IMG/VR virus record: IMGVR_UViG_3300045988_167077
Coordinates: 1-61,145 of that record
Origin: a virus
DNA length: 61,145 nucleotides
Direction: 5' to 3' (one strand)
Position numbers and translations under genes: made by a program. The notes under the pieces are model-generated. The model searched no databases, had not been told where the DNA came from, and was given only the letters and a program-made list of their open reading frames with translations. Of this stretch, positions 25,914 through 46,107 are shown in pieces; within the stretch, counting starts at the first letter, position 1; each line of letters begins with the position of its first letter.

Positions 25914-25920
25914 CTGGAGT

Positions 25921-27254: not shown

Positions 27255-27477
27255 TCCATAAATACGTTACAAACATTAAAAACATAAGTGTTTTTTTATC
27301 TGACATTCCTTCAATTTCATATAGTCCCGAGGACCCGGAAAGTCCCCGGGATGCTTTTTTATATGGTCTGAGCATCAGGACAGGGACCGGATTATAGGCC
27401 AGGAAATTGGCCGAAAACATGAGGAAAATCATAATCGGCTTAATGTGAGCGACTTATCTATAATAGACACTTATAGA

Positions 27478-27771
27478 TTATTGCTCGGAGTCTCTTGGCT
27501 TTGACAATTCGATGAGGCGTTCCTCTATAGTGAGCTGCTTTCCTTCTTCCGTGCTCAACTCGACCGCCTGAAGTTTCGGTACCGTATATTGCATGAATTT
27601 TTCAGCAATGATGAGCCTGTCCTTGGGCTCCAGCTCCATGAAGTCCCTGACCATGTTCCCGCTGTTGCTGTATGTGTCGAGCAGTTCAGATACCATATCC
27701 TTGACCTTTTTCGTTGCCTTGTTCGGAGTCCCTTTCTTGCGTCCTCCGGTCTTGCGTCCCTTTGCGTCCAT
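27478..27771 (-). CDS. Small basic protein (GRKKGTPNK N-terminus), possible DNA-binding or small-terminase-like protein
   Basis: ATG at 27771 gives MDAKGRKTGGRKKGTPNKATKK followed by a helical acidic domain. It is an isolated minus-strand gene. Confidence 0.45.
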   Translation of the reverse strand: MDAKGRKTGGRKKGTPNKATKKVKDMVSELLDTYSNSGNMVRDFMELEPKDRLIIAEKFMQYTVPKLQAVELSTEEGKQLTIEERLIELSKPRDSEQ

Positions 27772-27870
27772 GATGAATTGTGAAATGATGTTAATACTTA
27801 AACTAATCATGCGAAGATAACTATCTACTTTTAAGCCACCTAATTAAGTATTAACAAATCTGACAGTAAA

Positions 27871-28377
27871 ATGGCACTTCCAGGAATAGGAATAGGCAGC
27901 GTGATAGGCGCAGGCATGAAAGCGGCGTCCATCATCTATGGCGGCGCAAAGAACGCCAAGGCTTACACGGATGTTATAAACAGCATCAAACAACAGCAGC
28001 AGGACAACCAGGACTGGTTTGACAGGCGTTACAATGAAGACTCCACCCAGAGGGCGGACGCCCAGGCGCTTCTCACGGCGACTGAGGAAAGCATCCGCAA
28101 CAGGAACAGGCAGGCCGCAGGAGCCGCGGCGGTCATGGGCGGGACAGACGAGAGCGTGGCGGCGGCAAAGGCCGCGAACAATCAGGCCCTGGTCGACGCG
28201 ACTAGCAAGATAGCGGCAGCCGCGGACCAGCGGAAGGATGCAATCGAGAACCAGTACATGTCTACCAAATCAAACTTGAGTTCCCAGATCAACGACATGA
28301 CGCTCAAGAAGGCGCAGAGCACGGCTGACGCCGTGAAGGGAGTGGCTGATGCGGCCGGCAGTATAGCTTCACTATAA
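27871..28377 (+). CDS. Putative internal virion / ejection protein (small)
   Basis: 168 aa. Gly-rich hydrophobic N-terminus LPGIGIGSVIGAGMKAASIIYGG followed by an Ala/Gln-rich helical region. It heads the operon leading to the portal. Confidence 0.5.
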   Translation: MALPGIGIGSVIGAGMKAASIIYGGAKNAKAYTDVINSIKQQQQDNQDWFDRRYNEDSTQRADAQALLTATEESIRNRNRQAAGAAAVMGGTDESVAAAKAANNQALVDATSKIAAAADQRKDAIENQYMSTKSNLSSQINDMTLKKAQSTADAVKGVADAAGSIASL

Positions 28378-28388
28378 ATCGTCCCGAC

Positions 28389-29738: not shown

Positions 29739-29745
29739 GTACGGC

Positions 29746-32700
29746 ATGAACGACAATAAGAGAAAATTATACGATGCCCTGTCGAATGACTATGACATGG
29801 GTACATACGAGCAGTTCAGAAAGGACCTCGAGGACAAGGACAAGAGACGGAAATTGTACGATGCGACCAGCGACGCGTATGATTTCGGCGATTATGACCA
29901 ATTTGAGGCGCAGCTGGGCTATGGTCAGTCTCAGTCCGCTCCAAGTGCAGAGGAAATCAATTCAGGCAGTGCAGGTCCTGTCATGCCGAAGCCGGCCATG
30001 GAAAACAGGAACTGGGAGGTACAGATGGGGAACGGCCACAGCCGTGCGACCGTGGAAAAGCCTGAACCTGTAGATGTGCCCGTTCCGCAGAGACCTGAAG
30101 GCCAGGAGCCGTCTGATGATGGGACCGCGGCTTCTTCTGGTGATGTGAGGTCATATCTGGAGAATGCCAACAGACAGCAGGTAGCCAACCTCAGCAGGGA
30201 CATCAGCTCACGACTGGATGAGGCGCAGACGAAATCCCGTGACATATATATGAAGGAACAGGAAGACGCACGCAAAGGTGGATTCCTGTCGACACTTGCA
30301 CATGCCATTGCCGCGTCCGGCCATAATCCTGAAGGCAGGTCCGGAGGCATGTCCGATGCCCAGCAGAGGTCACTTCAGGGCGCGAACAGCGAACTCCAGA
30401 GCGAAATATCCAAACTGGAGGCTGCAAAGAAGGCGATGAGCAATGCCGAAGAGATTATAGCCGAGGCAGACAAGAGTGTCCAGGAAGGCAAATTCCCCGG
30501 CTTTTTCAAAGGCGTAGCACGCGGCTTCGGAGACAAGCTGTTTGACGTCAACACGTGGGACATGGGAGTGTCAGACACGAAGAACAGCATCGAACTGCTT
30601 AAGGCCCTCAGGAAGTACGATGAGGGAAAGCCGCTTTCGGAATCCGAGCAGATGCTTCTGGACGCGAAGTCGGTGGAACTCGCCACGAATGCCTACTTCG
30701 GTTCATACATAGGCAGGGGATACAAGGCGGGAGCCGTGACGGCACAGAGCCTGCCGTTCATGTTGGAGATGGCGGTCAACCCGGCCAGCACCCTTGGCGA
30801 ATCCACACAGAGCATGCTGGCCAGGTATGCGCTGTCGAGGTTTGCGAAGAAAGGAGCGACCAGGGCCGCCCAGAAGTTCGCTACAAAGGCTGCAGGGGCT
30901 GCAGGACGCGCCTTGGGTGACATAGCCGGTTCAGCTGTCATGGCAGGGACATCCGGCGCTGTCCGTGTGGCCGGTGACGCCATCGACAGGCATGTCGGTG
31001 ACATCAAGACTGATATGGACGGGCAGGGACAGACCGTATTTGCAGGTCATGACCCAGAAAGCCTCGGGAAATCGATTGCAAAGGCATTCACGTCAACTGC
31101 AATAGAGAACCATTCCGAGATGCTGGGCGAATACTTCGCTCCGGCTCTCGGCATCGTTTCCAAACTCGGCAGGAAGGGCATGGAGAAGTTCGGCCTGAAG
31201 AATGTCGTGGATTTCGTTGACGATGTCAGTGCGACTGACGCCGCCAAGCTCATAGCGGATTTCCAGAAGCGCACCAAGTGGCACGGAACCATCGGAGAGT
31301 ATGCGGAAGAGGTCGCAGGCAACATTGAGAATGCCATTCTTGTCGGAGACAACACTTTGGACGCGTCGGATGACACCGGAGTGTTCAATCTGGACCAGAA
31401 CATCGACACGTTCCTGGGCGTGGCCCTTATGGGAGGAGTATTCAGTACGGCCCGTACTATCGGGTGGCGTACTCCAAAATACAGGGCTAGGATGGAGATG
31501 GAGGAGGCCCGTAATAAGGCAAGGACGAAATACGGAAGTGAGGCATGGCAGGAGATTGAGGACAGGATGGCGGAAGCCGGGGACTCCGGCATGTCGGCCG
31601 TATTGTCCACTGTGATTGCCGGCGAGAACAGTCCTGAGAAGGCAAAGGCCCTGCTGGACTATGCGAAGAGCATCAAGAAGTATGAGGGTATGCTGGCGGG
31701 AGATGAGAAGCGCAGGGAGATTGCGAGCCCGGAGGCGACGGATCTGGAGACTTCCTATGAGAACGGCTATACGCTTTCGACGCCGCAGGAAGTGCATGAC
31801 GCGAAACTGATGTTCGAGTATCAGGAGGCCATGCTCCAGAAGGCGCTGGGCACTTCCGACATTGATATCGACACAATTATGCTCGGCAATGAGATGGGAA
31901 CGCTTACGGACGAGCAGAAGTCAGTAGCCATGGACTATCTCAATGCCAAGGCCACATTTGACGGCGTCATTGACAGGGTGAGGGATGACATCGACAGCAG
32001 GATTTCTTCCGTGGAGAATGCCATCGACGCGAGCACGAACAGGGATACCGGAATGCTGCAGCCTGCAAGTCTTGTCGACGACAGGCCTGTCCACATCATT
32101 TCGGGAATCGTCAGGCTCACTCCTGACGGGACGATGGTGGACACCAGGAACTCTGAGAACTTCATAATCGTCCGTGACGACAAGACCGGCAGGATGGAGA
32201 CCATTTCTCCTTCAGACATAAACCGTCTTGAGAATGAGATAGACCCGTCCATGGAGAAACAGGCGGCCAGACAGCAGATCCAGGATGTCTATGGCGGCCG
32301 TGAAGCTGACAGCATCGACGGCGTGCTTGCCTTCAATCCTGGCGACACATACACTCTGACCAATGGGCAGGGGCAGTCTTTCCCTGTTCAGATTGTGGCC
32401 AATGAACAGGGCGTGGCTGACAACGGTGACGGAACCGTCAATGTCATCCTCAATAATGACATTGACACCCAGACCGGGCAGCCTCGTATCACTCAGATGC
32501 CTAAAGAGCAGATCCAGGAGATGGCGGAGGCCACCAACCTGTCAAGACTGCAGCAGTACGAACAGCAGAAGCTTGCCAGGGCAGCGGAACAGGCGGAAAC
32601 GGATGCGACAGGGAGGACACCTGAGAATCCTTTCAGAATCAATGACAGGATCACACTGTCTGATGCGGAGACCGGCAAGGTGGAGAACGGAGTGGTCGGT

Positions 32701-35700
32701 TCGGAACTCACGGATGACGGCAAGTATGAGGTCGTCGTGGAGAAGCAGGACGGCAGCCAGTCCATACTCTATCTGTCTCCAAGTGAACTGGAACAGCTTG
32801 GCGCCAGACTGGAACAGCCGGAGGCCGTGGAAGAACGGAATGCTCCGGTTTTGGAACAGAATCAGCCGGTTTTGGAACAGAATCAGCCGGTTTTGGAACA
32901 GAAGACAGAGAAGGCCGAGCAGGAGTCTGCGATGTCACGCATACCTTTAGACAGGGATGGAGTGCCGCAGTTCGAGCAGGCTCAGCCGTCTGACACGTGG
33001 GAGGCCCTTCTTGAACTCAACAGCGGCAATGCCGTAGAGGCGGAGGATACCGCAAGGCAGATGTATGAAAACGCATCGAAGAATCTTGACAAGGCCCAGA
33101 AGACCAAGCCGAAATCCGGCACTTCAGTGATGGAGATCCAGAGGAACAAGGCTGAGCGCAACGGGCAGATAGACGAACTCCGGAAGTCCGTGGATTTCTG
33201 GGGCAAGGTCCTGTCATTCCCTGAGGCTGTGAGGAAGTCGGCAAGTGCAGCCGCAGAGGCAGAGGTTCGACAGAAAGAGGACGCGAAGAGGGAGGCAGTA
33301 CGACAGGCAAAAGAGAACCTGGCCAAAGGGCGCAAACTGATGCAGCAGAAGGGAACGTATTATAAGGATGACGCCAAACTCGGCGATTATCTGGATTTCC
33401 ATGATTATGCGCTGCGTATGATTGCCAATGGACGCGTGAAGTTCGTCTGGAAGAACGATGCCGACAACAACTCGATAAAGGGGCTTGGCGGACATCTCGG
33501 TCTTGAGGACAGCGAATCGGAGAGAAAGGCTCTCTTCAGTCTCCTGGCAAACCAGGATAAGGGCGGATTGCGTCCTGATGACGCCGCGGAACAGTTGTCG
33601 GAGGAATACAATTCAAGTCTGGGCGCCGAGGTAATCAGTTCTTCTGAGGCCCTTGATGTCATTCTTGACATTATTCGCACTTATGGCGGCAAGACCCGCG
33701 ACATGATGAATGCCGCCATTGACGCACATGCAATGGCCGGTATGGACGAGAGGGGCCATGATGAAGACAACAAGTCTTCTGAGGACAAAGATAATTCAAA
33801 GATTGCTGAAGGCCAAGAATCTCTTCCTGCAGATGCTCCATTGAGCAACGAGATTAATGAGTTCGGGGTTCCTTTCATCGAGTCTTCGGATGGAACAACC
33901 GTTTTTGGCGTATTGACTGACGACAGCGGTTTGTCTCCTGCTCCTATCAAATTAAGCCTCGGAGAGAATGCCGCAGATAAAAATGGCACCAATCATGGTT
34001 ATGGCTTGCTTCATATTGAAGCAGGACATGGGGACCAGATACGTGCAGCAGGTTATTCTTCCATCAAAGATTTCGTTGAAGATGTGGCCCGCAATTATGA
34101 CACAATCCGCGAAGGTGGAATTGTTGCAAATAATCAAACGTATCTGCTGGAACTCTCAGATGAGCACAACAACACATTGTTTATCCAGTTGTCACGGGAT
34201 GGCAGCTATTGGAACATAAACAGCGCGGGTATTTTCAAGAAGAAATACTCGCGCCGTAAGCCGGAAGTCTTTACTCGACCCGCATTGAAGACCGAAACTG
34301 ACACCGATTCCGGTAGAGTTGATAGCAGCCGTTTTAGTGGTGCAACTGCGCCAGCAGGAAACTCTCATCAGACTTCTGAAGGCAAAGATACAAATATTTC
34401 CGAAGAAAGCAACACGGGCTCTGAGAAATCTGTGGCAGAGCAGATTACGGAACAGAGAGAGGTCGTGAATACGGAGCCGACTGAGGCGCAGAAGGAAGCC
34501 GGCAACTACCGCATGGGGCACGTCAAGATAGACGGAATGGATGTCACCATCGAGAACCCTAAGGGCAGCATCCGGAGAGGTACTGATGCGGACGGCAAGA
34601 AGTGGGAGTCTGAGATGCACTATGACTATGGTTATATCCGCGGCACAAAGGCTGTGGATAACGACCACATCGACATATTCCTTTCTGACAACCCGGAGAC
34701 TGGGAACGTCTTTGTCGTCGACCAGGTGAACCCGAAGACGGGAGAGTTTGACGAGTCCAAGGTGATGTATGGTTTCGCTTCTGAGCAGGAGGCCAGGGAC
34801 GCTTATCTTTCGAATTACGAAAAGGGCTGGAAGGGTCTCGGCAAGATTACTGAGGTGACCAGGGAAGAGTTCAAGAAATGGATTGAATCATCCACGAGAA
34901 AGACAAAGCCGTTCTCGGAATATGCAAGTGTGAAAGTTGCTGAGGCGCAGAAGGAGAAATCCATTCAAGGACTTGAAGGATACTCGCGTGACGAGATCAA
35001 AGGCATTGTGACAGATCATATCAACGATGTGATGAGGGACTATGATATTGATGCGGAAATAATCGGCATGGATATTCATGGATCCAGGAACCGTCATGAC
35101 GCCAGACCGGACTCTGACTTGGACGTAGTTGTCGAATATAGTGGCGACATCCGGGAGGACGACATGTTCAATGCGCTTAACGGCGAGGAGGATGCGCTTT
35201 CGATTGAGGGAATCAAGGTCGATATCAACCCTATAAGAAAAGAGGAAACTGGTGACCTCCAGGACTACATGAAGCAGTCGGAAGAGTATGACAGGGAAAA
35301 GAGTTCTGCTGACAACCAGGGCAATCCTGTAAATGAGGACAGCACTCCTGCTGGTCGTGCCGTCAAGGAAGAAGAAAAGCCGGCAGAGGTTTCCGCTCCT
35401 GCTGAAACCGAGACCCCAAAAAACGAGGGTGCATTTGGTCTTGTCAGCGATGATAGAATGGCAGAACTGAAAGAGAGACTGCGCAAGAAGTTGAGCGGTC
35501 AACTCAATATGGGCATTGACCCGGAAATTCTTGCTATCGGTATGGAACTCGCAGTAGGGCACATTGACCGAGGTGTCAAGACCTTTGCGGACTTCTCCAA
35601 GAAGATGATTGAGGATTTGGGCGATGTTATCCGTCCATACCTCAAAGCCTTCTACAATGGCGCACGAGACCTGCCCGAAGTAATAGAGAGTGGTCTTTCT

Positions 35701-38700
35701 GCCGAAATGACCCCTTATGATGAGGTGCGCCGCTTCAACGTTGCAACCATTGGCGAGAATGGCGAGGAAAAGAAGCCTACCATTCTAGAGACAGCCGAGC
35801 AGGTAAGCAACGAACTGACCGTGCAGCGCAATGCTGATGAGGTGGAAGTGGTTGTTTCCGAAACGGAAAACACCACTAACGACGTATATTCAATCGCTCC
35901 TGCCCAGTACACAACCAAGCGCGGCAAGGTGCTAGACATGTTCTTGGTGAAGCCTAACGACGAATTGGGCACATCTGAACAGCGCGCAGCCAATGCACGT
36001 GTACGCGAAATGAAAGGATGGTGGGATAAGAAAGCTGGCGGCTTCATGCTTCGCAGCGAGGAAGATGCACGCCAGTTTGTCGAGCAAACGTTCCGTAATC
36101 CTATCGGCACTACTGCATCGGCTAATGAGGTGCAAGCCGCAAAAACTTCTCTCATGAGCGACACAGGTTCTTCACGTGACGAGCAGGAAGTAAATGCCGC
36201 AGTGGGCAAGACTTTCAAGTCTAAGAAAGGCCTTATCCTGTATGTAGACCGCATCGACGATGGCCGAGTATTCTACGAGATTACCGACATTGACGGCACT
36301 ACGGAGAGATACGACACATCTATCCCTGCAATGGCCGACGCTCTCCAGCGTTGGGAAGAAGTAACTGTAACTGATAACAACAATAACAATGAAACAGACA
36401 GAACAGCAGCAGAGCAAGCTGCTGAAAATAAACAGCCGAAGAATTCAACTAAAAAGAAAAAATCGGTATCTTTGCATACAGAAGTGGATGACTTATTTAG
36501 TGGTCTGTTCGATGAAGAAACATTAAACTCTAAAGACAACGAAAATGGATTACAACGAAATGATGCAGTTCGCTCCGAAGGGCTGTCAGCCGACGGTGGT
36601 AAACACACAGAAAGACTATCAGAAGGCTCTGAAAAAGATAGCGGAAGCGAACCACAAGAAAGAAGCGGACTTAACGCCGGAAGAAAAGGAACAGGCGTTG
36701 AGGCAGATAGGTCTGTGCGACCTCGACTTTCAGACACCGTAGAAGAACTCGCTCCGTCAGAGCACAAGAACACTCACAACAACCATTCAGAACGAGGTGA
36801 GAATCACGCTCCTACCTCGATAGATGCACGCATTGAAGCCAATATAAAGGCTATTGAGTTGGCTCAACAACTTATTGACAGCGGTGAACAGGCAACTGAA
36901 AAGCAGATGCAGGTACTCCGCAAGTTCAGCGGTTGGGGTGGCCTCGGCAAGGCTTTCAGCGACAGCCTGTATTCTGTGCAGTTGCAGAATATCTTAGGTG
37001 CAGAAGCCTATCAGGATGCCGTAATGAGTGCCAATAGTGCGTACTACACACCTGCTTATATCGTAGATACCCTTTGGGATATTGCAGAGCAATTGGGATT
37101 CAAGGGTGGAAACATTCTTGAGGGTTCTGCCGGTATCGGCAATATCTTGGGTCAGATGCCTATAAACATCAGCGAGCGAAGCGACATTCACGCAATCGAG
37201 ATTGACGGCACATCTGGCAATATCCTTTCTCTCCTATATCCGGACGCAAAAGTGGATATACAGGGATTTGAGCAGACACGCATACCTAACGGAAGTGTGG
37301 ACTTGGCAATTACCAATGTTCCTTTCGTTACAGGGCTGCGAGTGAATGATACCACCGGAGACAAGGACCTCTCGAAGAAATTCCACAACATCCACGATTT
37401 CTGCATTGCCAAGAACGTGCGCAAACTGCGTGAGGGCGGTTTGGGCATCTTCATTACATCCAACGGAACACTTGACAACAGCAAGCAACTCCGTGATTGG
37501 ATTGTCAGCGAGGGCGGTGCGGACTTCATCGGTGCGTTCCGTATGAATAACAAGACATTCGGAGGAACAGGCGTAACTTCCGACATCATCGTCATACGCA
37601 AGCGTATGAACGGCAGGAAATCATCCAATGCCATTGATGTAAGCACCATTACCGGTGAGCGTTCGGTAGAATACGATACAGGCGACACTCGCAAGGTAAA
37701 AGGGCAGACTGTCCCCGTCATCAAACACCTTGCTATGGATTACAACCGTTATTTCGTTGAACATCCCGAAAATATGGCAGGTGTAATGCAGTTCGCATTT
37801 GAGCAGGGAGACAACTTCCGGCCTACTGCCAAAGGTCTATATCCGGAAAAAGGAAAGAACCAAGAGCGTATGCTTTCTGATTTCGTTTCCTCTTTCAAAG
37901 AAGAGACCGACACTCCTGCTGCATCTGATGAATCCAACAGGACAGATAATGGTTATGTGTCGGATGCTTCCGCTGACGGAAGGAAACTTGGAGAGCTGTA
38001 TGTAAAGGACAGCAAACTTGTTGTTGCCGGTATTGGTGGTTACTCACCTCTTGCCGTTAATGACAACAAGGTCAAGGGACACACGAAAGTGGAGTGCTTC
38101 AAAGCATACGCAGCAATCAAGGATGCTCTTGCAGAAGTCCTCAAATATCAGACCGAGAACGAAAGCGATAGCGGATTGAAGCCTTTGCTTGCCAAACTCA
38201 ACAAGGCTTACGATGATTTTGTCTCCACCTACGGGCATTTCAACAAGAACACCGCCATTTCTTTCCTCCACAATGATGTGGACTATGCAAACGTATTTTC
38301 TCTTGAAAAATACGAGGAAACCGGAGATAAATCCGGCAAGCGTGTTCAGAAGTTCGACAAAGCCGATGTGTTCAGTCAACGTGTAGTCGAAAAAGAGAAA
38401 GAGCCTAATCCGACAAATGTAAAGGACGGCATCATCGCAAGTGTGTTTAAGTTTGGACGCATTGATGTTCCGTACATCGCAAATCAGCTCGGCAGGAGCG
38501 TTGAGGATGTAAAGAAAGAAATCATTTCAAGCGGATACGGATTTGAGGATCCGACAACAAAGCAAATGGAATTGTCCTATCAGTATCTGAGCGGAAATGT
38601 TCGTGAGAAGTTGCGCCAGGCAGAAGCGAATAACGACAACGGAGAGTATGACGGCAATATCAAGGCATTGCAGAAAGTTATCCCTATGGATATTCCCGCA

Positions 38701-41700
38701 CACTTGATTGACTTTACACTCGGTTCATCTTGGATTACTCCGAAGCTCTACGAGGACTATATCAAGGATAGAACCGACATAGATGTAAAACTGACTGCTG
38801 CCGGTGGCTCTTGGTTTATGGATACCCCTTACTACGTCAATAACGAGAAGAACCGCTCAATGGGCGTATATAGCGAGGTTCTCCATAATACCGTGTTAGG
38901 TCATACACTTATCGAAGCAGCCATACAGAACAAGACCATAACTGTATCCCGTACTTCAAAGAAATGGGACGGTACTACTGAGACCATTACCGACAAGGAT
39001 GCGACACAGGCTTGTGCTGCGAAGATTGACGAGATAAGACAGGACTTCAAGGATTGGGCAAGACAGAAGATGCAGAGCGATTCTGAAATGTCCGATGAAA
39101 TGGAGCGAATCTATAACGACACGTTCAACAACTATGTGCCCATGAGTATTCCGGATGAGTTCGTGCCGGAATACTTCGGAGGTGCCTCCCACAAGTTCAA
39201 AATGCGCCCTCATCAAGGCAAAGCCATTGTAAGAGGAACTATGCAACCACTCCTGCTCGCCCACGAGGTGGGAACAGGAAAGACATTCACCCTCATTTCC
39301 ACCGCTATGGAGATGCGCAGACTTGGTACTGCCCGTAAGCCTATGATTGTTGTGCAAAATGCAACAGTCGGTCAGTTCGTGGCAAGTGCAAAGGAACTGT
39401 ATCCTAATGCCAAGATATTGACCCTCGAAGAAGCCGACCGCACAGCGGACGGAAGAAAGAACTTCTATGCCAAAATCAGACATAACGATTGGGATATGAT
39501 TGTCGTACCTCAATCCACGTTCGAGTTTATCCCGGACAGTGAGGAAAGGCAGATGCAATTCGTGCAGGACAAAATCGAGGAAAAGAAAGCTGTCCTCGAA
39601 AATATGCAGGATGCCGACCCACGTGGAGAGAGTATGATTACCAGACAAGCTAAAAAGGAAATCTCCGACTTGGAAGCGCAGCTCGCAGAGTTGAGTGAGT
39701 CCGCATCGAAGAAGCGTAGCGCATCGGCAGAGAAAAAGCGTGCCGTAACTTTGCAAAACGCAGAGGTAAAGGCTCTTGAAATGCTCGACCGCCGTACTGA
39801 TGATGTGGAGAACTTTGACGATATGGGCATTGATGCCCTGCTCATTGATGAAGCGCACGAGTATAAGCACCTTGGATTCGCCACCGCTATGCAGCGTGGT
39901 GTAAAGGGAGTGGATTCATCATATAGCAAGAAGTCGCAGGGAGTATATCTGAAAACACAGGCTGTGTTGGAGAACAACAACGGCAGGAACGTTATTTTTG
40001 CTACCGGTACTCCTATCAGCAACACGGCAGCAGAGATATGGACATTTATGCGCTACCTTATGCCGGCTGATACGATGAAAGAGTACGGTATCTATTACTT
40101 TGATGATTTCGTGCGCAACTTCGGCAATATTCAGCAGATGCTGGAGTTCAACACAAACGGAAAATTCAAAGAGAGCAACCGCTTTGCCGGATATGTCAAT
40201 CTTCCAGAGTTGGTGCGTATATGGTCCGGTATATCGGATACTGTCCTTACAAAAGAAGCCGGAGATGTAAAGGACAAGATACCCGACATTGAGGGAGGAA
40301 AGGCACAAGACCTTTATCTTCCGCAGACAAAAGCCTTACGCAGTATTATGAAGTTTGTCAAAAGCGAACTTCAGCGATACGAGCAGATGAGTGGTAGGGA
40401 GAAGAAAGAGAACAGCCATATTCCTTTGACGATGTATGGAATAGCCAAATCTGCAGCCGTCGATGCCCGACTTGTCTCCGATGCGGAGGATGACCCTAAC
40501 AGCAAGACCAATGAAGCTGTGCGCCAAACCCTGCGTTCTCTGAAAGAGACCGCTTCATACAAGGGTACGGTCGCTATCTTCTCCGATAACTATCAGAATA
40601 AGAAGACCGGTTTCAACTTGTATGATGACATCAGGAACAAGTTGATTGCACAGGGCGTTCCTGATGATGAGGTTGTAGTTATCCGTCCGGGGATGACCAT
40701 GAAGAAAAAACTTGAAATTTTCGATAAGGTAAACCGTGGAGAAATCCGTGTCATTCTAGGCTCTACCTATACCCTTGGTACAGGAGTTAATATCCAAGAG
40801 AGACTGCACACCCTTATTCACCTCGATGCGCCTAACCGTCCTATGGACTATACACAGCGCAACGGACGTATCTTGAGACAGGGCAACCTGCACAAGGCAA
40901 TGGGCAAGCCTGTGCGCATCCTGCGCTTCGGTGTAGAGGATAGTCTTGATGTGACCGCCTATCAGCGTCTGAAAACAAAGGGCGCTATTGCTGACAGCAT
41001 TATGAACGGCAAGCAGATGATGGCCAACAATATGACCAACCGTGTGCTTGAAGAGGAAGAAGATGTATTTGGAGATACCATTGCGCAACTCTCCGGTAGC
41101 GAGTATGCAATGCTGAAGAATAATGCGGAGAAGAATGTACGCAAGTTCGAGAGCCGTAAGAAGCAATGGGAAGCCGACCAGACTTACATTCATAACGCCA
41201 AGCCGAAATTAAAGGCGCAGATAGCCGAGGCGGAGAAGCGTGCGGAGACAAACCGCAAGTTCCGGAAGGCGGTTGAGCAGGCGTTCCCCGGTGGGAAGTT
41301 CGACAGCATCACCGCAGGAAAGCAAACATTCTCAACGGCTGAGGAAATGGCTGACTTCTTTAAGGAGCATAACAAGGTCATTCTCGACAAGATGAAGCAG
41401 ATGAAAGAGGGTGGCGATGATAGCCATACCCGTGAACTTACGGTGAGAATCGGAGACTACTCTTTCAAGGTTCGCACCGTCTTGAAAAAGGACATCGGCA
41501 GAAACGGAGGCCAGTTGTTCTCCGAGGTTCGTCGCCAAATGACCTATTCTTGTCCGGAACTTGGCTTGGAGGATGTTCCTGTATATCAGAACCTGCTTCG
41601 CAATGCCATTGACGATATAGTTCAGAATGTAATTACAGGAAAGAACTATGCGGAGCGTGTGGAAAAGGCTGAAGCCGATGTCAAGCACTACCAATCTGAA

Positions 41701-44700
41701 CTGAAGCAGGTGGAATCCCGCGAGGGCGTTCCTTTCGAATATGCTGCGGAATTAGAGCAGGCTCGCAATCAGTATGAAGAGTATTCTGAACTGATGAAAA
41801 AGGAAATGGAAGAAAAAGAAGCCAAGTATGCTGAAATGGATAAAGATGTAGAAGCTGCTTCCGACATTTCCACTTCCGAAGAAGATGATGATGACGATTT
41901 AATGAGAGCCAGCGATACTATGTACCGCATCCGTGAAAGTGCTGCTCCCACTATAGGCGTAGGGCTTGATGTCGAAGCTGCAGCGGAAAGGCTTGCGGAA
42001 AGCCTCGGTGAGAGGGTGCGTATTGTCCGCGATGTCAATGAAATTGAGAACCAGAATAAAAATGTCCAGGAGAGCCAGAGGAAATCGAAGGGTTGGTTCA
42101 ATACCAGAACCGGAGAAATCGTCGTCGTCCTTCCGAATGCAACCGGCATTGAAGATGTCCAGGCTACAATCCTGCACGAGGCTGTGGGCCACAAGGGCTT
42201 GCGTGAACTCGTGGGAGATGACAGGTTCGATGACTTCCTGGATAAAGTGTATGCGGCTGCTACGAAGGCTACCAGATTGGAAATCGTCAGTCTCGCAAGA
42301 CGCAACCATTGGGATTTCAGGCTTGCGACTGAAGAGTATATTGCGGGCTTGGCTGAGAAAGGTTTCTCCGGGCGCGAGAACAGGACATTGTTCGGGAAGA
42401 TCAAGGATTTCTTCCTCGATATGTTGAGCAGGGCAAAGATTGCGCTGGGCTTCAATATCGGGGACAACGAACTGCGCTATATGCTGTGGCGGACATATCA
42501 GATGCGGACTTCAAGAGGTATTCTTGCGAAGGCCAATGACATGGCCGTCCAGCAGGAGCTGAAGGTCGGAAACTTCAGGGAGGATAATTCAAGTCCTGTA
42601 TCCTTCCTTAAACAGATGCAGGACAATGCGGAAACGCTGGTGCCTCGTCAGTTGACCAAAGAAATCTGGGACAATGAAATAAAAGGAAAGGTCTTCAGCA
42701 CTCCAATAGGTGTTGTAAAATTGGGCGAGAACCAATATGAAAAGAATATCAAGAAGGGTCGCGAACTTGAATTCGGCATGTTGATTCCTACCATTGAACG
42801 TCCTGATGCAATATTCGAAGAGGATGCTCCGGAGGCTGGCGCAGAAAGACAAACAAAGTATGTCTTTGTGAAATCTTTCGTTGAAAACGGAGTCAAGAAG
42901 ATAAACTACGCATCGGTTTCAGTAAGGAAGGACGGGATGGAGGTCGTTGCCAGCAGCCACTATCTTCGTGACAAACAGATGCTGAATAAAATAGAAAAAG
43001 AGCGAATGCTTTGGAACCGTTTCGCAAGCGGTTCTGAACTTTCGGCACAAGGCGGCTCGACAGCTCAAAGCAATGCTCTTTCTCTTGACGCAAATTTACT
43101 AAAAGGAGTCAAGAAAACAAATTCCGACGAGGAAATATTGTCAGGTGATGATTCAAGACTCCGTTTCAGGACCTCCGGTAATGGCGGAAGCAGCAACACT
43201 GCTCGGGACATTTACGAGGAGAAGACCCGCGTGATAGACAGAAACGGACGGAAGTCAGACACGGCCAACCTTATGCGCCGTCTGAAGGAAGCCTATGTGG
43301 ATAGCATGCAGTCTCTGAAATACCTCCAAGACGCTATTTCGGAAGAAACCGGGAAGCCTGTGGAAGACTTCGAGAACGCATACCTGGCGGAGAACTCAAT
43401 GAGTTCAAAGAACAAGGCCCAGACTGACATTTATCTGAACAGGTTCTTCAATCCTATAAAGGACGCTATCCGTGACCTCCAGAAAGAGGGAGCGGAATAT
43501 GGAGACATTGTCCGCTACCTCATGGCGAAACACGGACTCGAGCGAAACGAGGTCTTCTCAAAGAGGGATGCCGAGAAAGATGGAGGCGTCTGGGACGGTT
43601 CAGTCAGACGGGACTACTCAGGTCTGACCGAACTCACCAGAAGGGATACTGATACCGTCGCGCCTAGAATAGACGAGATCACCTCGCGAGCTGAGGATAT
43701 CGTCCGGAAGTTCGAAATGGACCATGATACGGATGTCCTGTGGGAAAAGATAAATGCCGCCACGAAGGACACCCTCCGGACGTCATATATAACGGGAATG
43801 CTCACGAAGGACAACTATGAGATGGTCCGTTCCATGTTCAGATACTATATCCCGTTGCGGGGATGGAGCGAGAATACGGCTTCGGCGGTGTACGACTATC
43901 TGAGCGATGCGAGACCGAAGACGTCATCCATAGTGAAGGCGGCTACCGGAAGAACCACCATTTCTGATGATCCGATTGCGACCATTGCCTATATGGGACA
44001 GAGTGCCATTATCCAGGGCAACAGGAATCTCATGAAGCAGAAGCTGCTTAATCTGGCTCTCAACCACAAGACTGGCCTCCTCACCGTAAGCAGGCAGTGG
44101 GAAGTGCTGGACCCTGTGACGGGAATGTGGACTCCAAGGGACCCGGATATTCCGGCCGACGCTGCCCCAGAACAGGTGGCTGACATCGTCGCCGACTTTG
44201 AGAAGGACATGAAGGAGGCGGAAAAGAAAGGCGTCGCAAGGCTCTCGAGGGGAAAACTCGATACCGGCAAGCATCTCACTGCCTATGAGGGACAGGAGCA
44301 TATCATAAAGGTCAAGCGTGGCGGGATTGATTACAGTATCTATCTGAACGGCAACCCGCGTGCAGCCCAGGCTGTCAACGGCATGACCAATCCTGATGCT
44401 GTGGACAGCTGGCTGATCCGCAAGGCCAGGGTCATAAAGAATTTTATGGCCAGGATGTTCACGTCCCAGAATCCGGCGTTCATAATATCGAACCTGAGCC
44501 GAGACGTCATTTTCGCAGGAACTGCCGTATATGCCAAAGAGGATGCGAAATATGCCGCAAGGTATGCGAAGAACATTACTGTGGCTCTGGCCAAGGGACA
44601 GCTGATAGGCCTGATCCACAGGTTCGAGACGGACAGGCTTGACAACTCGAAAGACCTGGACAGATATTTCGGAGAGTTCATACGCAATGGAGGAGAGACA

Positions 44701-46107
44701 GGTTTCACGCAACTCAATACCGTCGATGACTTCAAGCGCGACATTGACCGGTTCTCCAGGGAGATGAAGCAGGGACAGGTGATGAAAGTCTCAACTAAAG
44801 TCTGGAACGGCATCTGGGACGGCATCGAATACATGAACAGGTGCGCTGAGGATGCGACAAGGTTTTCAGTGTATATGACATCCCGCCAGATGGGGCGTAG
44901 CGTGGAAAGGAGCATCAGTGACGCAAAGGAGATTACGGTCAACTTCAACAGGAAAGGAAGCGGAGGATTCGGAGCCAGGTTGATGAACTTTGCATATATC
45001 TTCTTCAATGCTGCAGTCCAGTCGCTTGCCAATGCCGGAAAGATAATGTACGAACACCCTATGAAGGCGCTTGCCGCCCTTGGGGCATTCTCGGCTGCCG
45101 GCTTTATGGCTCCGCTTCTGGCGCAGGCGATCATATCCGCATTTGGAGGAGATGACGACGCCTATTGGGATTTGCCGGAGTGGGTACGCAGGAACAATTT
45201 TGTCTTCTATATCCCATGGAGTGAAAACAAGTTCCTTATCATTCCGATTTCCCAGGAGCTCCGTCCTTTCTATGCCATGGGCGAGATTGCGATGTCAGTG
45301 CTGATGGGCAAGGAGGAAGTCCTTGACGGATTGAAGAGCGCTGCCGGAAGTTTTATGGACCTTCTCCCTATAGACTTCATGGGGAATGGCGGAAACCTTG
45401 CGATTAGCCTTACACCTACGGTTGCACAGCCTTTCGCGCAATTGGTCGCCAATACCGATTATTTCGGAAGCCCGATTTACAGACGCAACGACTACAACAA
45501 ATTGGACCCGGCATGGACGAAGGCCTACAAGGGTACCAGTCCGATGCTGGTCAATGCGTCCAAGTGGCTGAATGAAGTGACGGGAGGAGATGATGTCAAG
45601 AGGGGATGGATAGATCCTATAAATAATCCTGCAGTCATCGAACATCTGTTTGAAAGTTATTTGGGTGGAACAGGCAAGACCATTAACAGGGCCGCAAAGA
45701 CATTCTCGATGATATGGAATCCGGACATGCGTGACATCAGGAACGTCCCGATTGCAAGCACCTTCATTCAGGAATCCGATGATGAAAGGGTCGCCGGCAA
45801 TCAGTTGAACCGGGAATACTTCAAGCTCATGGACGAGTTCAAAGAGACTAGCCACACCGTCTCCGGATACAAGAAGAAGGCGAGGATGGGCTCAATGGAA
45901 TATGCGGACAAGTTGAATGAGTTCATGGAGACCCCTGATTTTGAGAGGTACTCAAAGGCCAGAGGCTATGCCAATACGATTTCCAAATTGAGGCAGGCTT
46001 TGAAGAGAGCCCAGGAGAGCGGGGAAGATGTGATGGTCGAAGAAAACCTCCAGCAGATCCTCCATGACCTCAAGCGGCAAATGGTCGAAGAACTCAAGGA
46101 ACAGTGA
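29746..46107 (+). CDS. Giant polyvalent protein (5,453 aa): PPase-like, nucleotidyltransferase, N6-adenine MTase, SNF2 helicase, HExxH metallopeptidase, two nuclease-like modules and a C-terminal TM region
   Basis: Single stop-free 16,362-nt frame with ATG start. Multiple catalytic motif sets were read directly; see the domain sub-features. Confidence 0.9.
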   Translation: MNDNKRKLYDALSNDYDMGTYEQFRKDLEDKDKRRKLYDATSDAYDFGDYDQFEAQLGYGQSQSAPSAEEINSGSAGPVMPKPAMENRNWEVQMGNGHSRATVEKPEPVDVPVPQRPEGQEPSDDGTAASSGDVRSYLENANRQQVANLSRDISSRLDEAQTKSRDIYMKEQEDARKGGFLSTLAHAIAASGHNPEGRSGGMSDAQQRSLQGANSELQSEISKLEAAKKAMSNAEEIIAEADKSVQEGKFPGFFKGVARGFGDKLFDVNTWDMGVSDTKNSIELLKALRKYDEGKPLSESEQMLLDAKSVELATNAYFGSYIGRGYKAGAVTAQSLPFMLEMAVNPASTLGESTQSMLARYALSRFAKKGATRAAQKFATKAAGAAGRALGDIAGSAVMAGTSGAVRVAGDAIDRHVGDIKTDMDGQGQTVFAGHDPESLGKSIAKAFTSTAIENHSEMLGEYFAPALGIVSKLGRKGMEKFGLKNVVDFVDDVSATDAAKLIADFQKRTKWHGTIGEYAEEVAGNIENAILVGDNTLDASDDTGVFNLDQNIDTFLGVALMGGVFSTARTIGWRTPKYRARMEMEEARNKARTKYGSEAWQEIEDRMAEAGDSGMSAVLSTVIAGENSPEKAKALLDYAKSIKKYEGMLAGDEKRREIASPEATDLETSYENGYTLSTPQEVHDAKLMFEYQEAMLQKALGTSDIDIDTIMLGNEMGTLTDEQKSVAMDYLNAKATFDGVIDRVRDDIDSRISSVENAIDASTNRDTGMLQPASLVDDRPVHIISGIVRLTPDGTMVDTRNSENFIIVRDDKTGRMETISPSDINRLENEIDPSMEKQAARQQIQDVYGGREADSIDGVLAFNPGDTYTLTNGQGQSFPVQIVANEQGVADNGDGTVNVILNNDIDTQTGQPRITQMPKEQIQEMAEATNLSRLQQYEQQKLARAAEQAETDATGRTPENPFRINDRITLSDAETGKVENGVVGSELTDDGKYEVVVEKQDGSQSILYLSPSELEQLGARLEQPEAVEERNAPVLEQNQPVLEQNQPVLEQKTEKAEQESAMSRIPLDRDGVPQFEQAQPSDTWEALLELNSGNAVEAEDTARQMYENASKNLDKAQKTKPKSGTSVMEIQRNKAERNGQIDELRKSVDFWGKVLSFPEAVRKSASAAAEAEVRQKEDAKREAVRQAKENLAKGRKLMQQKGTYYKDDAKLGDYLDFHDYALRMIANGRVKFVWKNDADNNSIKGLGGHLGLEDSESERKALFSLLANQDKGGLRPDDAAEQLSEEYNSSLGAEVISSSEALDVILDIIRTYGGKTRDMMNAAIDAHAMAGMDERGHDEDNKSSEDKDNSKIAEGQESLPADAPLSNEINEFGVPFIESSDGTTVFGVLTDDSGLSPAPIKLSLGENAADKNGTNHGYGLLHIEAGHGDQIRAAGYSSIKDFVEDVARNYDTIREGGIVANNQTYLLELSDEHNNTLFIQLSRDGSYWNINSAGIFKKKYSRRKPEVFTRPALKTETDTDSGRVDSSRFSGATAPAGNSHQTSEGKDTNISEESNTGSEKSVAEQITEQREVVNTEPTEAQKEAGNYRMGHVKIDGMDVTIENPKGSIRRGTDADGKKWESEMHYDYGYIRGTKAVDNDHIDIFLSDNPETGNVFVVDQVNPKTGEFDESKVMYGFASEQEARDAYLSNYEKGWKGLGKITEVTREEFKKWIESSTRKTKPFSEYASVKVAEAQKEKSIQGLEGYSRDEIKGIVTDHINDVMRDYDIDAEIIGMDIHGSRNRHDARPDSDLDVVVEYSGDIREDDMFNALNGEEDALSIEGIKVDINPIRKEETGDLQDYMKQSEEYDREKSSADNQGNPVNEDSTPAGRAVKEEEKPAEVSAPAETETPKNEGAFGLVSDDRMAELKERLRKKLSGQLNMGIDPEILAIGMELAVGHIDRGVKTFADFSKKMIEDLGDVIRPYLKAFYNGARDLPEVIESGLSAEMTPYDEVRRFNVATIGENGEEKKPTILETAEQVSNELTVQRNADEVEVVVSETENTTNDVYSIAPAQYTTKRGKVLDMFLVKPNDELGTSEQRAANARVREMKGWWDKKAGGFMLRSEEDARQFVEQTFRNPIGTTASANEVQAAKTSLMSDTGSSRDEQEVNAAVGKTFKSKKGLILYVDRIDDGRVFYEITDIDGTTERYDTSIPAMADALQRWEEVTVTDNNNNNETDRTAAEQAAENKQPKNSTKKKKSVSLHTEVDDLFSGLFDEETLNSKDNENGLQRNDAVRSEGLSADGGKHTERLSEGSEKDSGSEPQERSGLNAGRKGTGVEADRSVRPRLSDTVEELAPSEHKNTHNNHSERGENHAPTSIDARIEANIKAIELAQQLIDSGEQATEKQMQVLRKFSGWGGLGKAFSDSLYSVQLQNILGAEAYQDAVMSANSAYYTPAYIVDTLWDIAEQLGFKGGNILEGSAGIGNILGQMPINISERSDIHAIEIDGTSGNILSLLYPDAKVDIQGFEQTRIPNGSVDLAITNVPFVTGLRVNDTTGDKDLSKKFHNIHDFCIAKNVRKLREGGLGIFITSNGTLDNSKQLRDWIVSEGGADFIGAFRMNNKTFGGTGVTSDIIVIRKRMNGRKSSNAIDVSTITGERSVEYDTGDTRKVKGQTVPVIKHLAMDYNRYFVEHPENMAGVMQFAFEQGDNFRPTAKGLYPEKGKNQERMLSDFVSSFKEETDTPAASDESNRTDNGYVSDASADGRKLGELYVKDSKLVVAGIGGYSPLAVNDNKVKGHTKVECFKAYAAIKDALAEVLKYQTENESDSGLKPLLAKLNKAYDDFVSTYGHFNKNTAISFLHNDVDYANVFSLEKYEETGDKSGKRVQKFDKADVFSQRVVEKEKEPNPTNVKDGIIASVFKFGRIDVPYIANQLGRSVEDVKKEIISSGYGFEDPTTKQMELSYQYLSGNVREKLRQAEANNDNGEYDGNIKALQKVIPMDIPAHLIDFTLGSSWITPKLYEDYIKDRTDIDVKLTAAGGSWFMDTPYYVNNEKNRSMGVYSEVLHNTVLGHTLIEAAIQNKTITVSRTSKKWDGTTETITDKDATQACAAKIDEIRQDFKDWARQKMQSDSEMSDEMERIYNDTFNNYVPMSIPDEFVPEYFGGASHKFKMRPHQGKAIVRGTMQPLLLAHEVGTGKTFTLISTAMEMRRLGTARKPMIVVQNATVGQFVASAKELYPNAKILTLEEADRTADGRKNFYAKIRHNDWDMIVVPQSTFEFIPDSEERQMQFVQDKIEEKKAVLENMQDADPRGESMITRQAKKEISDLEAQLAELSESASKKRSASAEKKRAVTLQNAEVKALEMLDRRTDDVENFDDMGIDALLIDEAHEYKHLGFATAMQRGVKGVDSSYSKKSQGVYLKTQAVLENNNGRNVIFATGTPISNTAAEIWTFMRYLMPADTMKEYGIYYFDDFVRNFGNIQQMLEFNTNGKFKESNRFAGYVNLPELVRIWSGISDTVLTKEAGDVKDKIPDIEGGKAQDLYLPQTKALRSIMKFVKSELQRYEQMSGREKKENSHIPLTMYGIAKSAAVDARLVSDAEDDPNSKTNEAVRQTLRSLKETASYKGTVAIFSDNYQNKKTGFNLYDDIRNKLIAQGVPDDEVVVIRPGMTMKKKLEIFDKVNRGEIRVILGSTYTLGTGVNIQERLHTLIHLDAPNRPMDYTQRNGRILRQGNLHKAMGKPVRILRFGVEDSLDVTAYQRLKTKGAIADSIMNGKQMMANNMTNRVLEEEEDVFGDTIAQLSGSEYAMLKNNAEKNVRKFESRKKQWEADQTYIHNAKPKLKAQIAEAEKRAETNRKFRKAVEQAFPGGKFDSITAGKQTFSTAEEMADFFKEHNKVILDKMKQMKEGGDDSHTRELTVRIGDYSFKVRTVLKKDIGRNGGQLFSEVRRQMTYSCPELGLEDVPVYQNLLRNAIDDIVQNVITGKNYAERVEKAEADVKHYQSELKQVESREGVPFEYAAELEQARNQYEEYSELMKKEMEEKEAKYAEMDKDVEAASDISTSEEDDDDDLMRASDTMYRIRESAAPTIGVGLDVEAAAERLAESLGERVRIVRDVNEIENQNKNVQESQRKSKGWFNTRTGEIVVVLPNATGIEDVQATILHEAVGHKGLRELVGDDRFDDFLDKVYAAATKATRLEIVSLARRNHWDFRLATEEYIAGLAEKGFSGRENRTLFGKIKDFFLDMLSRAKIALGFNIGDNELRYMLWRTYQMRTSRGILAKANDMAVQQELKVGNFREDNSSPVSFLKQMQDNAETLVPRQLTKEIWDNEIKGKVFSTPIGVVKLGENQYEKNIKKGRELEFGMLIPTIERPDAIFEEDAPEAGAERQTKYVFVKSFVENGVKKINYASVSVRKDGMEVVASSHYLRDKQMLNKIEKERMLWNRFASGSELSAQGGSTAQSNALSLDANLLKGVKKTNSDEEILSGDDSRLRFRTSGNGGSSNTARDIYEEKTRVIDRNGRKSDTANLMRRLKEAYVDSMQSLKYLQDAISEETGKPVEDFENAYLAENSMSSKNKAQTDIYLNRFFNPIKDAIRDLQKEGAEYGDIVRYLMAKHGLERNEVFSKRDAEKDGGVWDGSVRRDYSGLTELTRRDTDTVAPRIDEITSRAEDIVRKFEMDHDTDVLWEKINAATKDTLRTSYITGMLTKDNYEMVRSMFRYYIPLRGWSENTASAVYDYLSDARPKTSSIVKAATGRTTISDDPIATIAYMGQSAIIQGNRNLMKQKLLNLALNHKTGLLTVSRQWEVLDPVTGMWTPRDPDIPADAAPEQVADIVADFEKDMKEAEKKGVARLSRGKLDTGKHLTAYEGQEHIIKVKRGGIDYSIYLNGNPRAAQAVNGMTNPDAVDSWLIRKARVIKNFMARMFTSQNPAFIISNLSRDVIFAGTAVYAKEDAKYAARYAKNITVALAKGQLIGLIHRFETDRLDNSKDLDRYFGEFIRNGGETGFTQLNTVDDFKRDIDRFSREMKQGQVMKVSTKVWNGIWDGIEYMNRCAEDATRFSVYMTSRQMGRSVERSISDAKEITVNFNRKGSGGFGARLMNFAYIFFNAAVQSLANAGKIMYEHPMKALAALGAFSAAGFMAPLLAQAIISAFGGDDDAYWDLPEWVRRNNFVFYIPWSENKFLIIPISQELRPFYAMGEIAMSVLMGKEEVLDGLKSAAGSFMDLLPIDFMGNGGNLAISLTPTVAQPFAQLVANTDYFGSPIYRRNDYNKLDPAWTKAYKGTSPMLVNASKWLNEVTGGDDVKRGWIDPINNPAVIEHLFESYLGGTGKTINRAAKTFSMIWNPDMRDIRNVPIASTFIQESDDERVAGNQLNREYFKLMDEFKETSHTVSGYKKKARMGSMEYADKLNEFMETPDFERYSKARGYANTISKLRQALKRAQESGEDVMVEENLQQILHDLKRQMVEELKEQ
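32845..32903 (+). repeat. In-frame 21-bp tandem repeat (2.8 copies) inside the giant ORF
   Basis: ccggttttggaacagaatcag x2 plus a 17-nt partial copy, encoding PVLEQNQ PVLEQNQ PVLEQK. Confidence 0.9.
33850..34260 (+). other. Giant-ORF domain: nuclease/toxin-like module 1 (PBECR-like, tentative)
   Basis: PIKLSLGEN...NHGYGLLHIEAGHGDQI...LFIQLSRDGSYWNINSAG. It is related to the module at 42690-43030. Confidence 0.4.
34483..34890 (+). other. Giant-ORF domain: family I inorganic pyrophosphatase-like
   Basis: VTIENPKGS..., YDYGYIRGT..DNDHIDIFL..., GEFDESKVMYGF and YEKGWKGLGKI parallel the E. coli Ppa blocks IEIPA, NYGYI..DGDPVDVLV, EDAKLVAV and EKGKWVKVEGW. Confidence 0.7.
34960..35250 (+). other. 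Giant-ORF domain: minimal (pol-beta fold) nucleotidyltransferase
   Basis: IHGSRNRHDARPDSDLDVVVEY is a GS...DxD nucleotidyltransferase signature. Confidence 0.7.
36820..37620 (+). other. Giant-ORF domain: N6-adenine DNA methyltransferase
   Basis: SAM motif ILEGSAGIGNILG (37111-37140) and catalytic VDLAITNVPF (37309-37326), an NPPF-type variant. Confidence 0.8.
39200..40960 (+). other. Giant-ORF domain: SNF2/DEAD-like superfamily 2 helicase
   Basis: Motif I HEVGTGKT, motif II LLIDEAHEYK, motif III FATGTPISN, motif V GTGVNIQ and motif VI QRNGRILRQGN. Confidence 0.85.
42050..42450 (+). other. Giant-ORF domain: zincin-like metallopeptidase
   Basis: TILHEAVGHKGLRE is an HExxH motif (42175-42192). 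Confidence 0.6.
42690..43030 (+). other. Giant-ORF domain: nuclease/toxin-like module 2 (paralog of 33850-34260)
   Basis: PIGVVKLGENQYEKN...YVFVKSF...INYASVSVRKDGMEVVASSHY has the same order of blocks as module 1. Confidence 0.4.

Follow-up and report, generated by a model that had tools for sequence, protein, structure and literature searches.

The window analysed here is the whole of a 61,145-nucleotide stretch of viral DNA, positions 1 to 61,145 of IMG/VR record IMGVR_UViG_3300045988_167077. On its plus strand lies a giant polyvalent-protein gene (29746-46107) which, according to the open reading frame (ORF) list and its translation, encodes 5,453 amino acids (aa) without internal stops and occupies 26.8% of the 61,046-bp genome. 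A first-pass annotation made from the sequence alone had proposed that nucleotides (nt) 36820-40960, corresponding to aa 2359-3738 of the giant ORF, hold a DarB-like N6-adenine methyltransferase (MTase) together with an SNF2 helicase. All of the MTase and helicase motifs quoted there are present, in one frame of the uninterrupted 5,453-aa ORF. The region runs from an LPD36-like helical domain through a gamma-class N6-adenine MTase and a linker of ~410 aa to an SNF2-type ATPase. Judged by homology and motif content, it is a module of the P1 DarB kind, the core of a DarB-like polyvalent protein.

PHROG places the giant protein in phrog_10089, a family annotated "DarB-like antirestriction", at a score of 1944.6 bits (E=0). 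Utilizing BLASTP against P1 DarB, translated from AF234173, we obtained three colinear segments, namely LPD36 plus MTase (7e-22), helicase motifs II-III (2e-15) and helicase motifs V-VI (4e-6). The P1 darB locus was also matched by tblastn (E 1e-16). These matches establish direct sequence homology to the archetype of the family, P1 DarB. The proposed likeness to DarB and to MTase-helicase families therefore came out clearly, both in the PHROG match and in BLASTP, and the two proteins have NVPF in common. A family-wide alignment of Bacteroidales phage proteins, Firmicutes element proteins and DarB conserves GWGG, YYTP, motif I, NVPF and the SNF2 motifs.

The module opens with the LPD36-like N-terminal helical domain (36823-37035, plus strand; aa 2360-2430). 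Iyer et al. describe LPD36 as an alpha-helical domain at the N-terminus whose conserved helices flank a GxGU motif (PMC5512222). The window protein likewise has a helical domain with a GxGU-type motif ahead of the MTase, SGWGGLG (aa 2395-2401), which aligns with TGEGGIG of P1 DarB. In an alignment of 16 sequences over aa 2360-2760 (A1), residues G37, W38 and G39 are invariant, and the AlphaFold2 (AF2) model built from A1 has helices at 2-20, 26-33, 43-58 and 60-70, preceding the MTase core.

The MTase domain (37036-37857, plus strand; aa 2431-2704) ends in a beta-rich subdomain. It carries a YYTP motif (aa 2433-2436), motif I ILEGSAGIGNILG (aa 2457-2469, nt 37114-37152), which includes ILEGSAGIG, and motif IV ITNVPF (aa 2522-2527, nt 37309-37326), with NVPF at aa 2524-2527. 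The one Pfam match on this segment, to Eco57I, is sub-threshold (E 0.019). Because Pfam alone misses the domain, its assignment rests on the A1 profile, on AF2 modelling with Foldseek, and on PADLOC. Searched against PDB, the A1 profile matched M.TaqI (E 3.7e-4), pairing YYTP with the TP motif, motif I with motif I and NVPF with NPPY. The AF2 model reached a mean predicted local distance difference test score (pLDDT) of 85.8 and a predicted template modelling score of 0.82, and its best Foldseek matches, with E values of 1e-8 to 1e-11, were lmo1582, the type I HsdM, BsaXI, M.TaqI, CamA and M.BseCI. PADLOC MTase models of type II (MTase_II, E 5e-8) and orphan enzymes (E 1e-7) match aa 2428-2676. 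By profile and predicted fold the domain is an EcoKI/TaqI-type gamma-class N6-adenine DNA MTase, as had been suggested from its motifs. The fold search of the model recognised no target-recognition domain; the catalytic core alone aligned, with a query template modelling (TM) score of ~0.4.

The published definition of the family calls for an EcoKI/TaqI-like MTase with a TP-capped N-terminal helix, motif I before motif IV, and a motif IV of the NPP(Y/F) type (PMC5512222). The window protein shows this arrangement with one variation, the second residue of motif IV being V and not P. That V is common to the whole family, DarB included. Because NVPF is conserved in Bacteroidales phages, Firmicutes element proteins and DarB, we consider it a family signature and not a defect. 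Catalysis is possible with N-[ILV]-P-[YF], as the Erm/KsgA adenine N6 methylases show.

The C-terminal ATPase of the module (39193-41025, plus strand; aa 3150-3760) is, on its sequence matches, a SWI2/SNF2-type superfamily 2 (SF2) ATPase/translocase. A Q-like RPHQ motif (aa 3154-3157) is followed, in the canonical order that had been reported (aa 3175 to 3708), by motif I VGTGKT (aa 3175-3180, nt 39268-39285), motif II DEAH (aa 3368-3371, nt 39847-39858), motif III ATGTP (aa 3419-3423), motif V TGVN (aa 3679-3682) and motif VI QRNGR (aa 3704-3708, nt 40855-40869; in a longer reading, QRNGRILRQGN). Pfam scores exceed the cut-offs for SNF2-rel_dom (36.5 vs 24.9 bits), ResIII (28.2 vs 22.5) and Helicase_C (44.5 vs 23.5), which bears out the SNF2 helicase call. 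A single-sequence phmmer search of PDB with the whole region found nothing beyond short INO80 and DbpA helicase matches, the former in the motif III region and reading TGTPIxNT. In the description of Iyer et al., the C-terminal partner is an SF2 ATPase of the SWI2/SNF2 clade whose two lobes both contain long inserts (PMC5512222). The Pfam matches, the INO80 match and the motif spacing (193 aa from I to II and 260 aa from III to V, consistent with inserts) place the window protein within this SNF2-fusion type. The distance of about 530 aa that had been given between methylase and helicase holds from the end of the MTase core (~aa 2620) to RPHQ, but not from motif to motif: motif IV and helicase motif I are 653 aa apart, and the two motifs I are 718 aa apart.

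Between the two enzymes lies a family-specific linker (37966-39192, plus strand; aa 2741-3149), modelled by AF2 with a mean pLDDT of 89.4. Searches of PDB gave neither a sequence relative nor a significant fold match for it. Weak matches to MntR, MarR and ScpB, of winged helix-turn-helix type, agree with the name of WH_1 (PF28553), one of two recent Pfam families, with DUF8437 (PF28554), that cover the region on homologues. A winged-helix subdomain is probable. Fold matches of the linker in BFVD are exclusively other giant phage MTase/helicase proteins (TM 0.67-0.74). A linker profile found 5,779 clusters (50% identity) at E<=1e-30 among 1.84 billion representatives, and many of the top matches are proteins of 5,000-7,000 aa.

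Homologues and conservation of the core

A tblastn search with the region matched 135 phage records, 79 of which cover at least 80% of it. They include, at 28-31% identity, the giant virion proteins encoded by Bcep22-like, Ralstonia, Klebsiella (SopranoGao) and Agrobacterium phages and by cyanophages. At the protein level, the search also returned proteins of ~2,000-2,400 aa from Clostridia and streptococci, with 31% identity over 99% of the query (E ~1e-167). These Firmicutes homologues are named "LPD25 domain-containing" or "N-6 DNA methylase". One of them, P0104, has as neighbours ParA/ParB, a relaxase, a TraG/VirD4 coupling protein, a VirB4-like ATPase, PrgI and TrbL, and because of these transfer-gene neighbours we consider the locus a conjugative element. 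The pairing of MTase and helicase, said earlier to occur also in large proteins of conjugative elements, is thus found there, in full-module homologues of ~31% identity beside relaxase, coupling protein and VirB4-like genes. The stretch common with the conjugative-element homologues is aa 2366-3756, in agreement with the extent originally assigned to the module (aa 2359-3738).

Iyer et al. (2017) described this combination as a "methylase-helicase dyad" and proposed its mechanism of in-cis protection (PMC5512222). The finding is not new, because PHROGs and GenBank already label the gene of the closest relative "DarB-like antirestriction". That relative, among cultured phages, is the temperate Bacteroides phage BKO1-TP3 (PQ571269), which grows on Bacteroides koreensis and whose gp55 also precedes a portal gene. 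Related loci number 48 in species-representative genomes and at least 210 in IMG/VR; nearly all belong to Bacteroidales or to viral contigs from the gut. Identity to anything retrieved does not exceed 86%, and the window protein is a new addition to a known and very large family.

Conservation within the gene is highest in the module, which has 82-83% aa identity to BKO1-TP3 gp55, as opposed to 34-54% in the flanks, and a ratio of nonsynonymous to synonymous substitution rates (dN/dS) of 0.054. Broken down by segment, Nei-Gojobori dN/dS against BKO1-TP3 is 0.068 in LPD36 plus MTase, 0.067 in the linker and 0.036 in the helicase; synonymous sites are close to saturated. These ratios point to strong purifying selection on the enzymatic core. 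Over the wider block of aa 2222-4285 the two giant proteins are 70% identical, against 27-60% in the flanks, and the DNA-level alignment with BKO1-TP3 is restricted to this core plus a small number of structural genes. Of 128 related loci, 124 keep NVPF and 118 keep all seven motifs; the exceptions are mostly truncated contigs or spelling variants of helicase motif I. Complete giant ORFs in 84 relatives, which are Bacteroidales prophages and viral contigs, measure 3,796-7,474 aa from stop to stop. Mean identity of relatives to the window protein is ~69% in the core and 28-45% in the N- and C-terminal flanks, some of which are unmatched. Since the loci were retrieved with the core, its presence in every relative is by construction, and the identity contrast with the flanks alone is informative. 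This contrast suggests that accessory domains turn over, cassette-like, around a fixed core.

Flanking domains and genome setting

Over threshold, Pfam matches the giant protein with LPD14, InPase, PBECR2 and LPD38, of which InPase, PBECR2 and LPD38 are phage-type polyvalent-protein domains (PMC5512222). In the terms of Iyer et al. 2017 (PMC5512222), the giant protein is a "polyvalent protein" of the phage type. Pfam scans of its remaining unannotated segments found nothing.

Directly after the ATPase comes a conserved C-terminal extension of the core (41026-42600, plus strand; aa 3761-4285) consisting of a coiled-coil-rich stretch and a HEAVGH motif (aa 4144-4149, nt 42175-42192). The extension belongs to the 70%-identity block common with BKO1-TP3 gp55, the motif lies inside the part conserved with relatives, and ~93-100% of relatives match the window protein up to ~aa 4200. 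The HEAVGH region gave no Pfam match at E<=1 and no PDB sequence match. Because polyvalent proteins often carry a processing metallopeptidase at that position, we regard HEAVGH as the possible mark of a zincin-type processing peptidase; that the giant protein would cleave itself is speculative.

Several other segments of the giant protein deserve mention. At its N-terminus a motif of ~20 aa is duplicated (29758-29916, aa 5-57), as KRKLYDALSNDYDMGTYEQF and RRKLYDATSDAYDFGDYDQF, and matches phrog_24532 (E 2e-11). The N-terminal 30 residues of DarB suggest, by analogy, that this motif may direct the protein to the capsid. A 21-nt unit, perfectly repeated in tandem over 2.8 copies (32845-32903), encodes PVLEQNQ three times and is possibly a linker of variable length. 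Just after InPase (34483-34887) is a Pol-beta-type nucleotidyltransferase-like segment, GSRNRH...DSDLDVVV (35056-35262, aa 1771-1839), which scores below the Pfam thresholds (Polbeta 21.9 vs 26.9; NTP_transf_2 20.9 vs 21). Pol-beta nucleotidyltransferases are listed by Iyer et al. solely from polyvalent proteins of conjugative elements (PMC5512222), and for that reason one in a phage-type protein would, if real, be an exception. The sole strongly hydrophobic segment (45067-45144, aa 5108-5133) is immediately N-terminal of LPD38 (45154-45750), which contains a PLxRFG-like ELRPFY motif (aa 5172); this arrangement is reminiscent of membrane-active ejection proteins.

The window begins and ends with an exact 99-nt direct repeat (1-99 and 61047-61145), which most likely arose where a circular assembly overlaps itself. 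On this sign we take the window to be, most likely, a complete phage genome of ~61,046 bp. The phage is a temperate Bacteroidales phage, with genes for an integrase, RecT, an FtsK-like/exonuclease protein, stand-alone DNA methyltransferases, portal, large terminase, major capsid protein and an endolysin. The portal gene (46193-48178, plus strand; phrog_156, E 2e-85) starts 86 nt downstream of the giant ORF. A portal homologue lies downstream on the same strand in 79 of the 84 relatives, mostly 60-150 nt away. With portal, terminase and capsid genes adjacent, the giant gene has the context described for the family, a multi-domain LPD protein amid late and packaging genes. On the minus strand are a stand-alone DNA methyltransferase (15918-16454; phrog_954, E 6e-71) and a PAPS-reductase-like protein (10937-11770; phrog_424, E 1.5e-31). 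The window holds no tRNA genes and no Rfam families. Three palindromes are rarer across the whole window than a simple mononucleotide expectation of 238 each, GATC with 108 occurrences, GTAC with 131 and CTAG with 27, which against so simple an expectation is a hint of restriction-site avoidance.

Proposed function and competing explanations

We hold with moderate confidence that the module is the core of a polyvalent virion protein that protects entering DNA in cis by means of a methylase and an SNF2 translocase. That the window protein is packaged and ejected, methylates DNA, couples its motor to its methylase and counters restriction is inferred. The proposal coincides with the published and still unproven hypothesis of in-cis protection (PMC5512222) and is consistent with the position of the gene beside the portal gene. 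The giant gene is directly upstream of portal; in the proposed mechanism its product would be made late and loaded into the capsid. It would exit the virion with the genome, and the module would load onto the entering double-stranded DNA. The SNF2 motor would track along the DNA, consuming ATP, while the tethered methylase would mark adenines and the complex would occupy the DNA. Restriction complexes of type I, and possibly BREX-like ones, in the new Bacteroidales host would then leave that molecule uncut, so that protection would be in cis.

Some of these steps have been described for relatives. JC1 gp69, a DarB-like protein of 4,515 aa, was found in purified virions with 51 unique peptides, second by mass spectrometry score (PMC9144972). 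P1 DarB is a head protein present in ~40 copies and has a 30-residue N-terminal capsid-targeting signal (PMC9024508). The Dar system protects only co-packaged DNA, in cis, against type I restriction-modification (R-M) (PMC12707154, PMC12810830). In these sources, genetic demonstration of in-cis protection from type I restriction is given for P1 only (PMC12810830, PMC12707154).

A number of points weigh against protection by a methylating translocase delivered from the virion. Motif IV is NVPF instead of the canonical NPPY. The giant protein is not the sole DNA-modification route of the phage, because stand-alone DNA methyltransferases are encoded too. Our literature search found no biochemical demonstration of methylation, ATPase activity or translocation for any family member, and a 2025 review keeps physical shielding as a working hypothesis (PMC12707154). 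Packaging of P1 DarB needs the helpers DarA, Hdf, DdrB and Ulx (PMC12810830, PMC9024508), which are reported absent in Bcep22-like phages (PMC9144972). Moreover, a protein of ~600 kDa must unfold or be processed to pass the tail, and the HEAVGH peptidase is putative. A bolder version of the same idea, which we offer tentatively and with considerable doubt, is that the core (aa ~2222-4285) would be a processive, ATP-driven adenine methylase of low specificity that paints the entering genome with N6-methyladenine within seconds. In this Bacteroidales lineage it would be the sole fixed element of a virion protein of 3.8-7.5 thousand aa that shuffles accessory effector cassettes.

Not every reading of the module involves productive methylation. 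The SNF2 motor could act by translocation, displacing or stalling type I complexes, or the protein could simply coat the DNA, with the MTase-like domain serving as an adenine-flipping clamp. Dar protection is strictly cis, and physical obstruction is hypothesised in the recent review (PMC12707154). The helicase is also the most constrained segment (dN/dS 0.036 vs 0.068 for the MTase), motif IV deviates from the NPPY consensus, and the fold search that recognised no target-recognition domain aligned the catalytic core alone (query TM ~0.4). However, the S-adenosylmethionine-binding motif I and N-x-P-F are invariant in more than 120 loci, from Bacteroidales phages to P1 and the integrative and conjugative elements (ICEs) of Firmicutes, and because of this invariance we argue that catalysis is under selection. 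At 0.068 the MTase too is under strong purifying selection, and we regard a roadblock that does not methylate as unlikely. A motor for genome entry or early processing, in which the SNF2 ATPase would pull or remodel the incoming genome in the manner of virion RNA polymerases and methylation would be a secondary mark of phage versus host, seems to us quite improbable. The polypeptide that holds the module also carries, C-terminally, a hydrophobic segment and an LPD38/PLxRFG-like domain of the sort typically seen in ejection proteins, its gene adjoins portal (79/84 relatives), and discrimination of invasive from host DNA is an option raised by Iyer et al. (PMC5512222). Yet P1 darB mutants are reported to be viable and defective on restricting hosts only (PMC12810830, PMC12707154), and the module also occurs in conjugative elements, which send single-stranded DNA via type IV secretion and have no need for pulling.

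The enzyme might instead act in the producer cell, methylating progeny genomes late, before or during packaging, and not be delivered with the DNA. A bona fide DNA MTase fold, as predicted, and a place near the portal and terminase genes that would suit coupling to packaging are in keeping with this idea, which we nevertheless consider very unlikely. The phage has separate soluble MTases for modification, and Iida et al. are said to have found in 1987 that DNA from P1 virions serves well as a type I substrate in vitro and so is not pre-protected, which we count against it. Homologues, furthermore, are physically in virions (PMC9144972, PMC9024508). Finally, since MTase and SF2 helicase are paired in type I, type III and type ISP R-M and in DISARM, and weak matches to DrmD and to a PLD-helicase anti-phage protein were obtained, the module could be a prophage-borne defence or restriction enzyme, of type ISP, type III or DISARM-like, that excludes other phages. 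To this we give hardly any credence. The DrmD matches are confined to the C-terminal helicase lobe, far below the cut-off (31.5 vs 610 bits), no nuclease domain adjoins the module, the MTase precedes the helicase within a polyvalent protein of virion type that also has InPase, LPD38 and PBECR2, and the gene sits in a structural operon.

As an annotation, the finding is routine: the module type, the DarB archetype and the in-cis protection proposal were all described in 2017, and databases already give relatives the DarB-like label. Its value is modest. The family is very large and pervasive in temperate Bacteroidales gut phages. The mechanism of DarB-type protection is still unproven. A constrained core between fast-diverging flanks offers a clean natural system for studying core function and the exchange of accessory domains, and the cultured relative BKO1-TP3 on Bacteroides koreensis makes the DarB-type mechanism directly testable in a gut-microbiome system. 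If the idea of a methylating translocase is true, it would explain how phages and conjugative elements pass restriction barriers in gut communities.

Comparison with known systems

P1 DarB (2,255 aa) and the window module have the same order of LPD36, N6-adenine MTase, linker and SNF2 ATPase and the same GxGG, YYTP and NVPF signatures, and the gene adjoins portal in both phages. Identity is low, however, at ~27-30% over ~30% of the query in tblastn. DarB is a stand-alone protein of 250 kDa, whereas the window module sits centrally in a multi-domain protein of 5,453 aa from a temperate Bacteroidales phage. DarB packaging also differs in its dependence on DarA, Hdf, DdrB and Ulx (PMC12810830, PMC9024508).

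The "DarB-like antirestriction" protein gp55 of BKO1-TP3 (5,553 aa) is the closest cultured relative, with 78% nt and 82-83% aa identity over the region. In both phages an integrase gene and then two small ORFs precede the giant gene, which portal follows, and they have capsid, portal and terminase genes in common. Outside aa 2222-4285, by contrast, the giant proteins are 27-60% identical, with rearranged segments. BKO1-TP3 further differs in having a reverse transcriptase gene (gp43, 23818-25308) beside a 2,638-aa ORF (gp44, 25402-33318), possibly a diversity-generating retroelement. Compared with this gp43-gp44 interval, the window ORFs gave no reverse transcriptase match and one short match in gp44.

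Among the Bcep22-like and related podophages, the giants are Bcep22 gp75, JC1 gp69 (4,515 aa), Atu_ph08 gp21 (4,877 aa) and the SopranoGao "PLxRFG protein". The full-length module aligns with them at 28-31% identity (E 1e-150 to 1e-179). They too are very large multi-domain proteins of the morphogenesis module with a C-terminal PLxRFG/LPD38-type region, but they have lytic transglycosylase or peptidase N-termini and belong to phages of other host phyla. Unlike them, the window protein has LPD14, InPase, the Pol-beta-nucleotidyltransferase-like segment and PBECR2.

The LPD25-MTase-SNF2 proteins of Firmicutes ICEs (P0104; Clostridioides, Roseburia, Streptococcus) resemble the module in their motifs and in their WH_1, DUF8437 and Helicase_dom architecture. 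Their N-terminal partner, however, is LPD25 and not phage-type domains. Because they are encoded among transfer genes, they would act in conjugation of single-stranded DNA, delivered or expressed early, and not from a capsid.

Type III and type ISP R-M enzymes and DrmD/DrmMI of DISARM also couple an adenine MTase to a DNA-tracking SF2 translocase, an analogy already drawn (PMC5512222). The window module differs in having no nuclease partner, and its hidden Markov model matches to these systems are partial and sub-threshold. DISARM DrmD was considered and rejected, as NCBIfam DrmD scored 31.5 bits against a cut-off of 610, in the C-terminal helicase lobe only, and the PADLOC DrmD match was partial (E ~1e-8). 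Similarly, the PLD-helicase anti-phage protein was set aside (phospholipD_antiphage, 47 vs 1100 bits, again in the C-terminal helicase lobe only). The direction of conflict is the opposite as well: those systems defend the host, and the window module would be the counter-defence of the invader.

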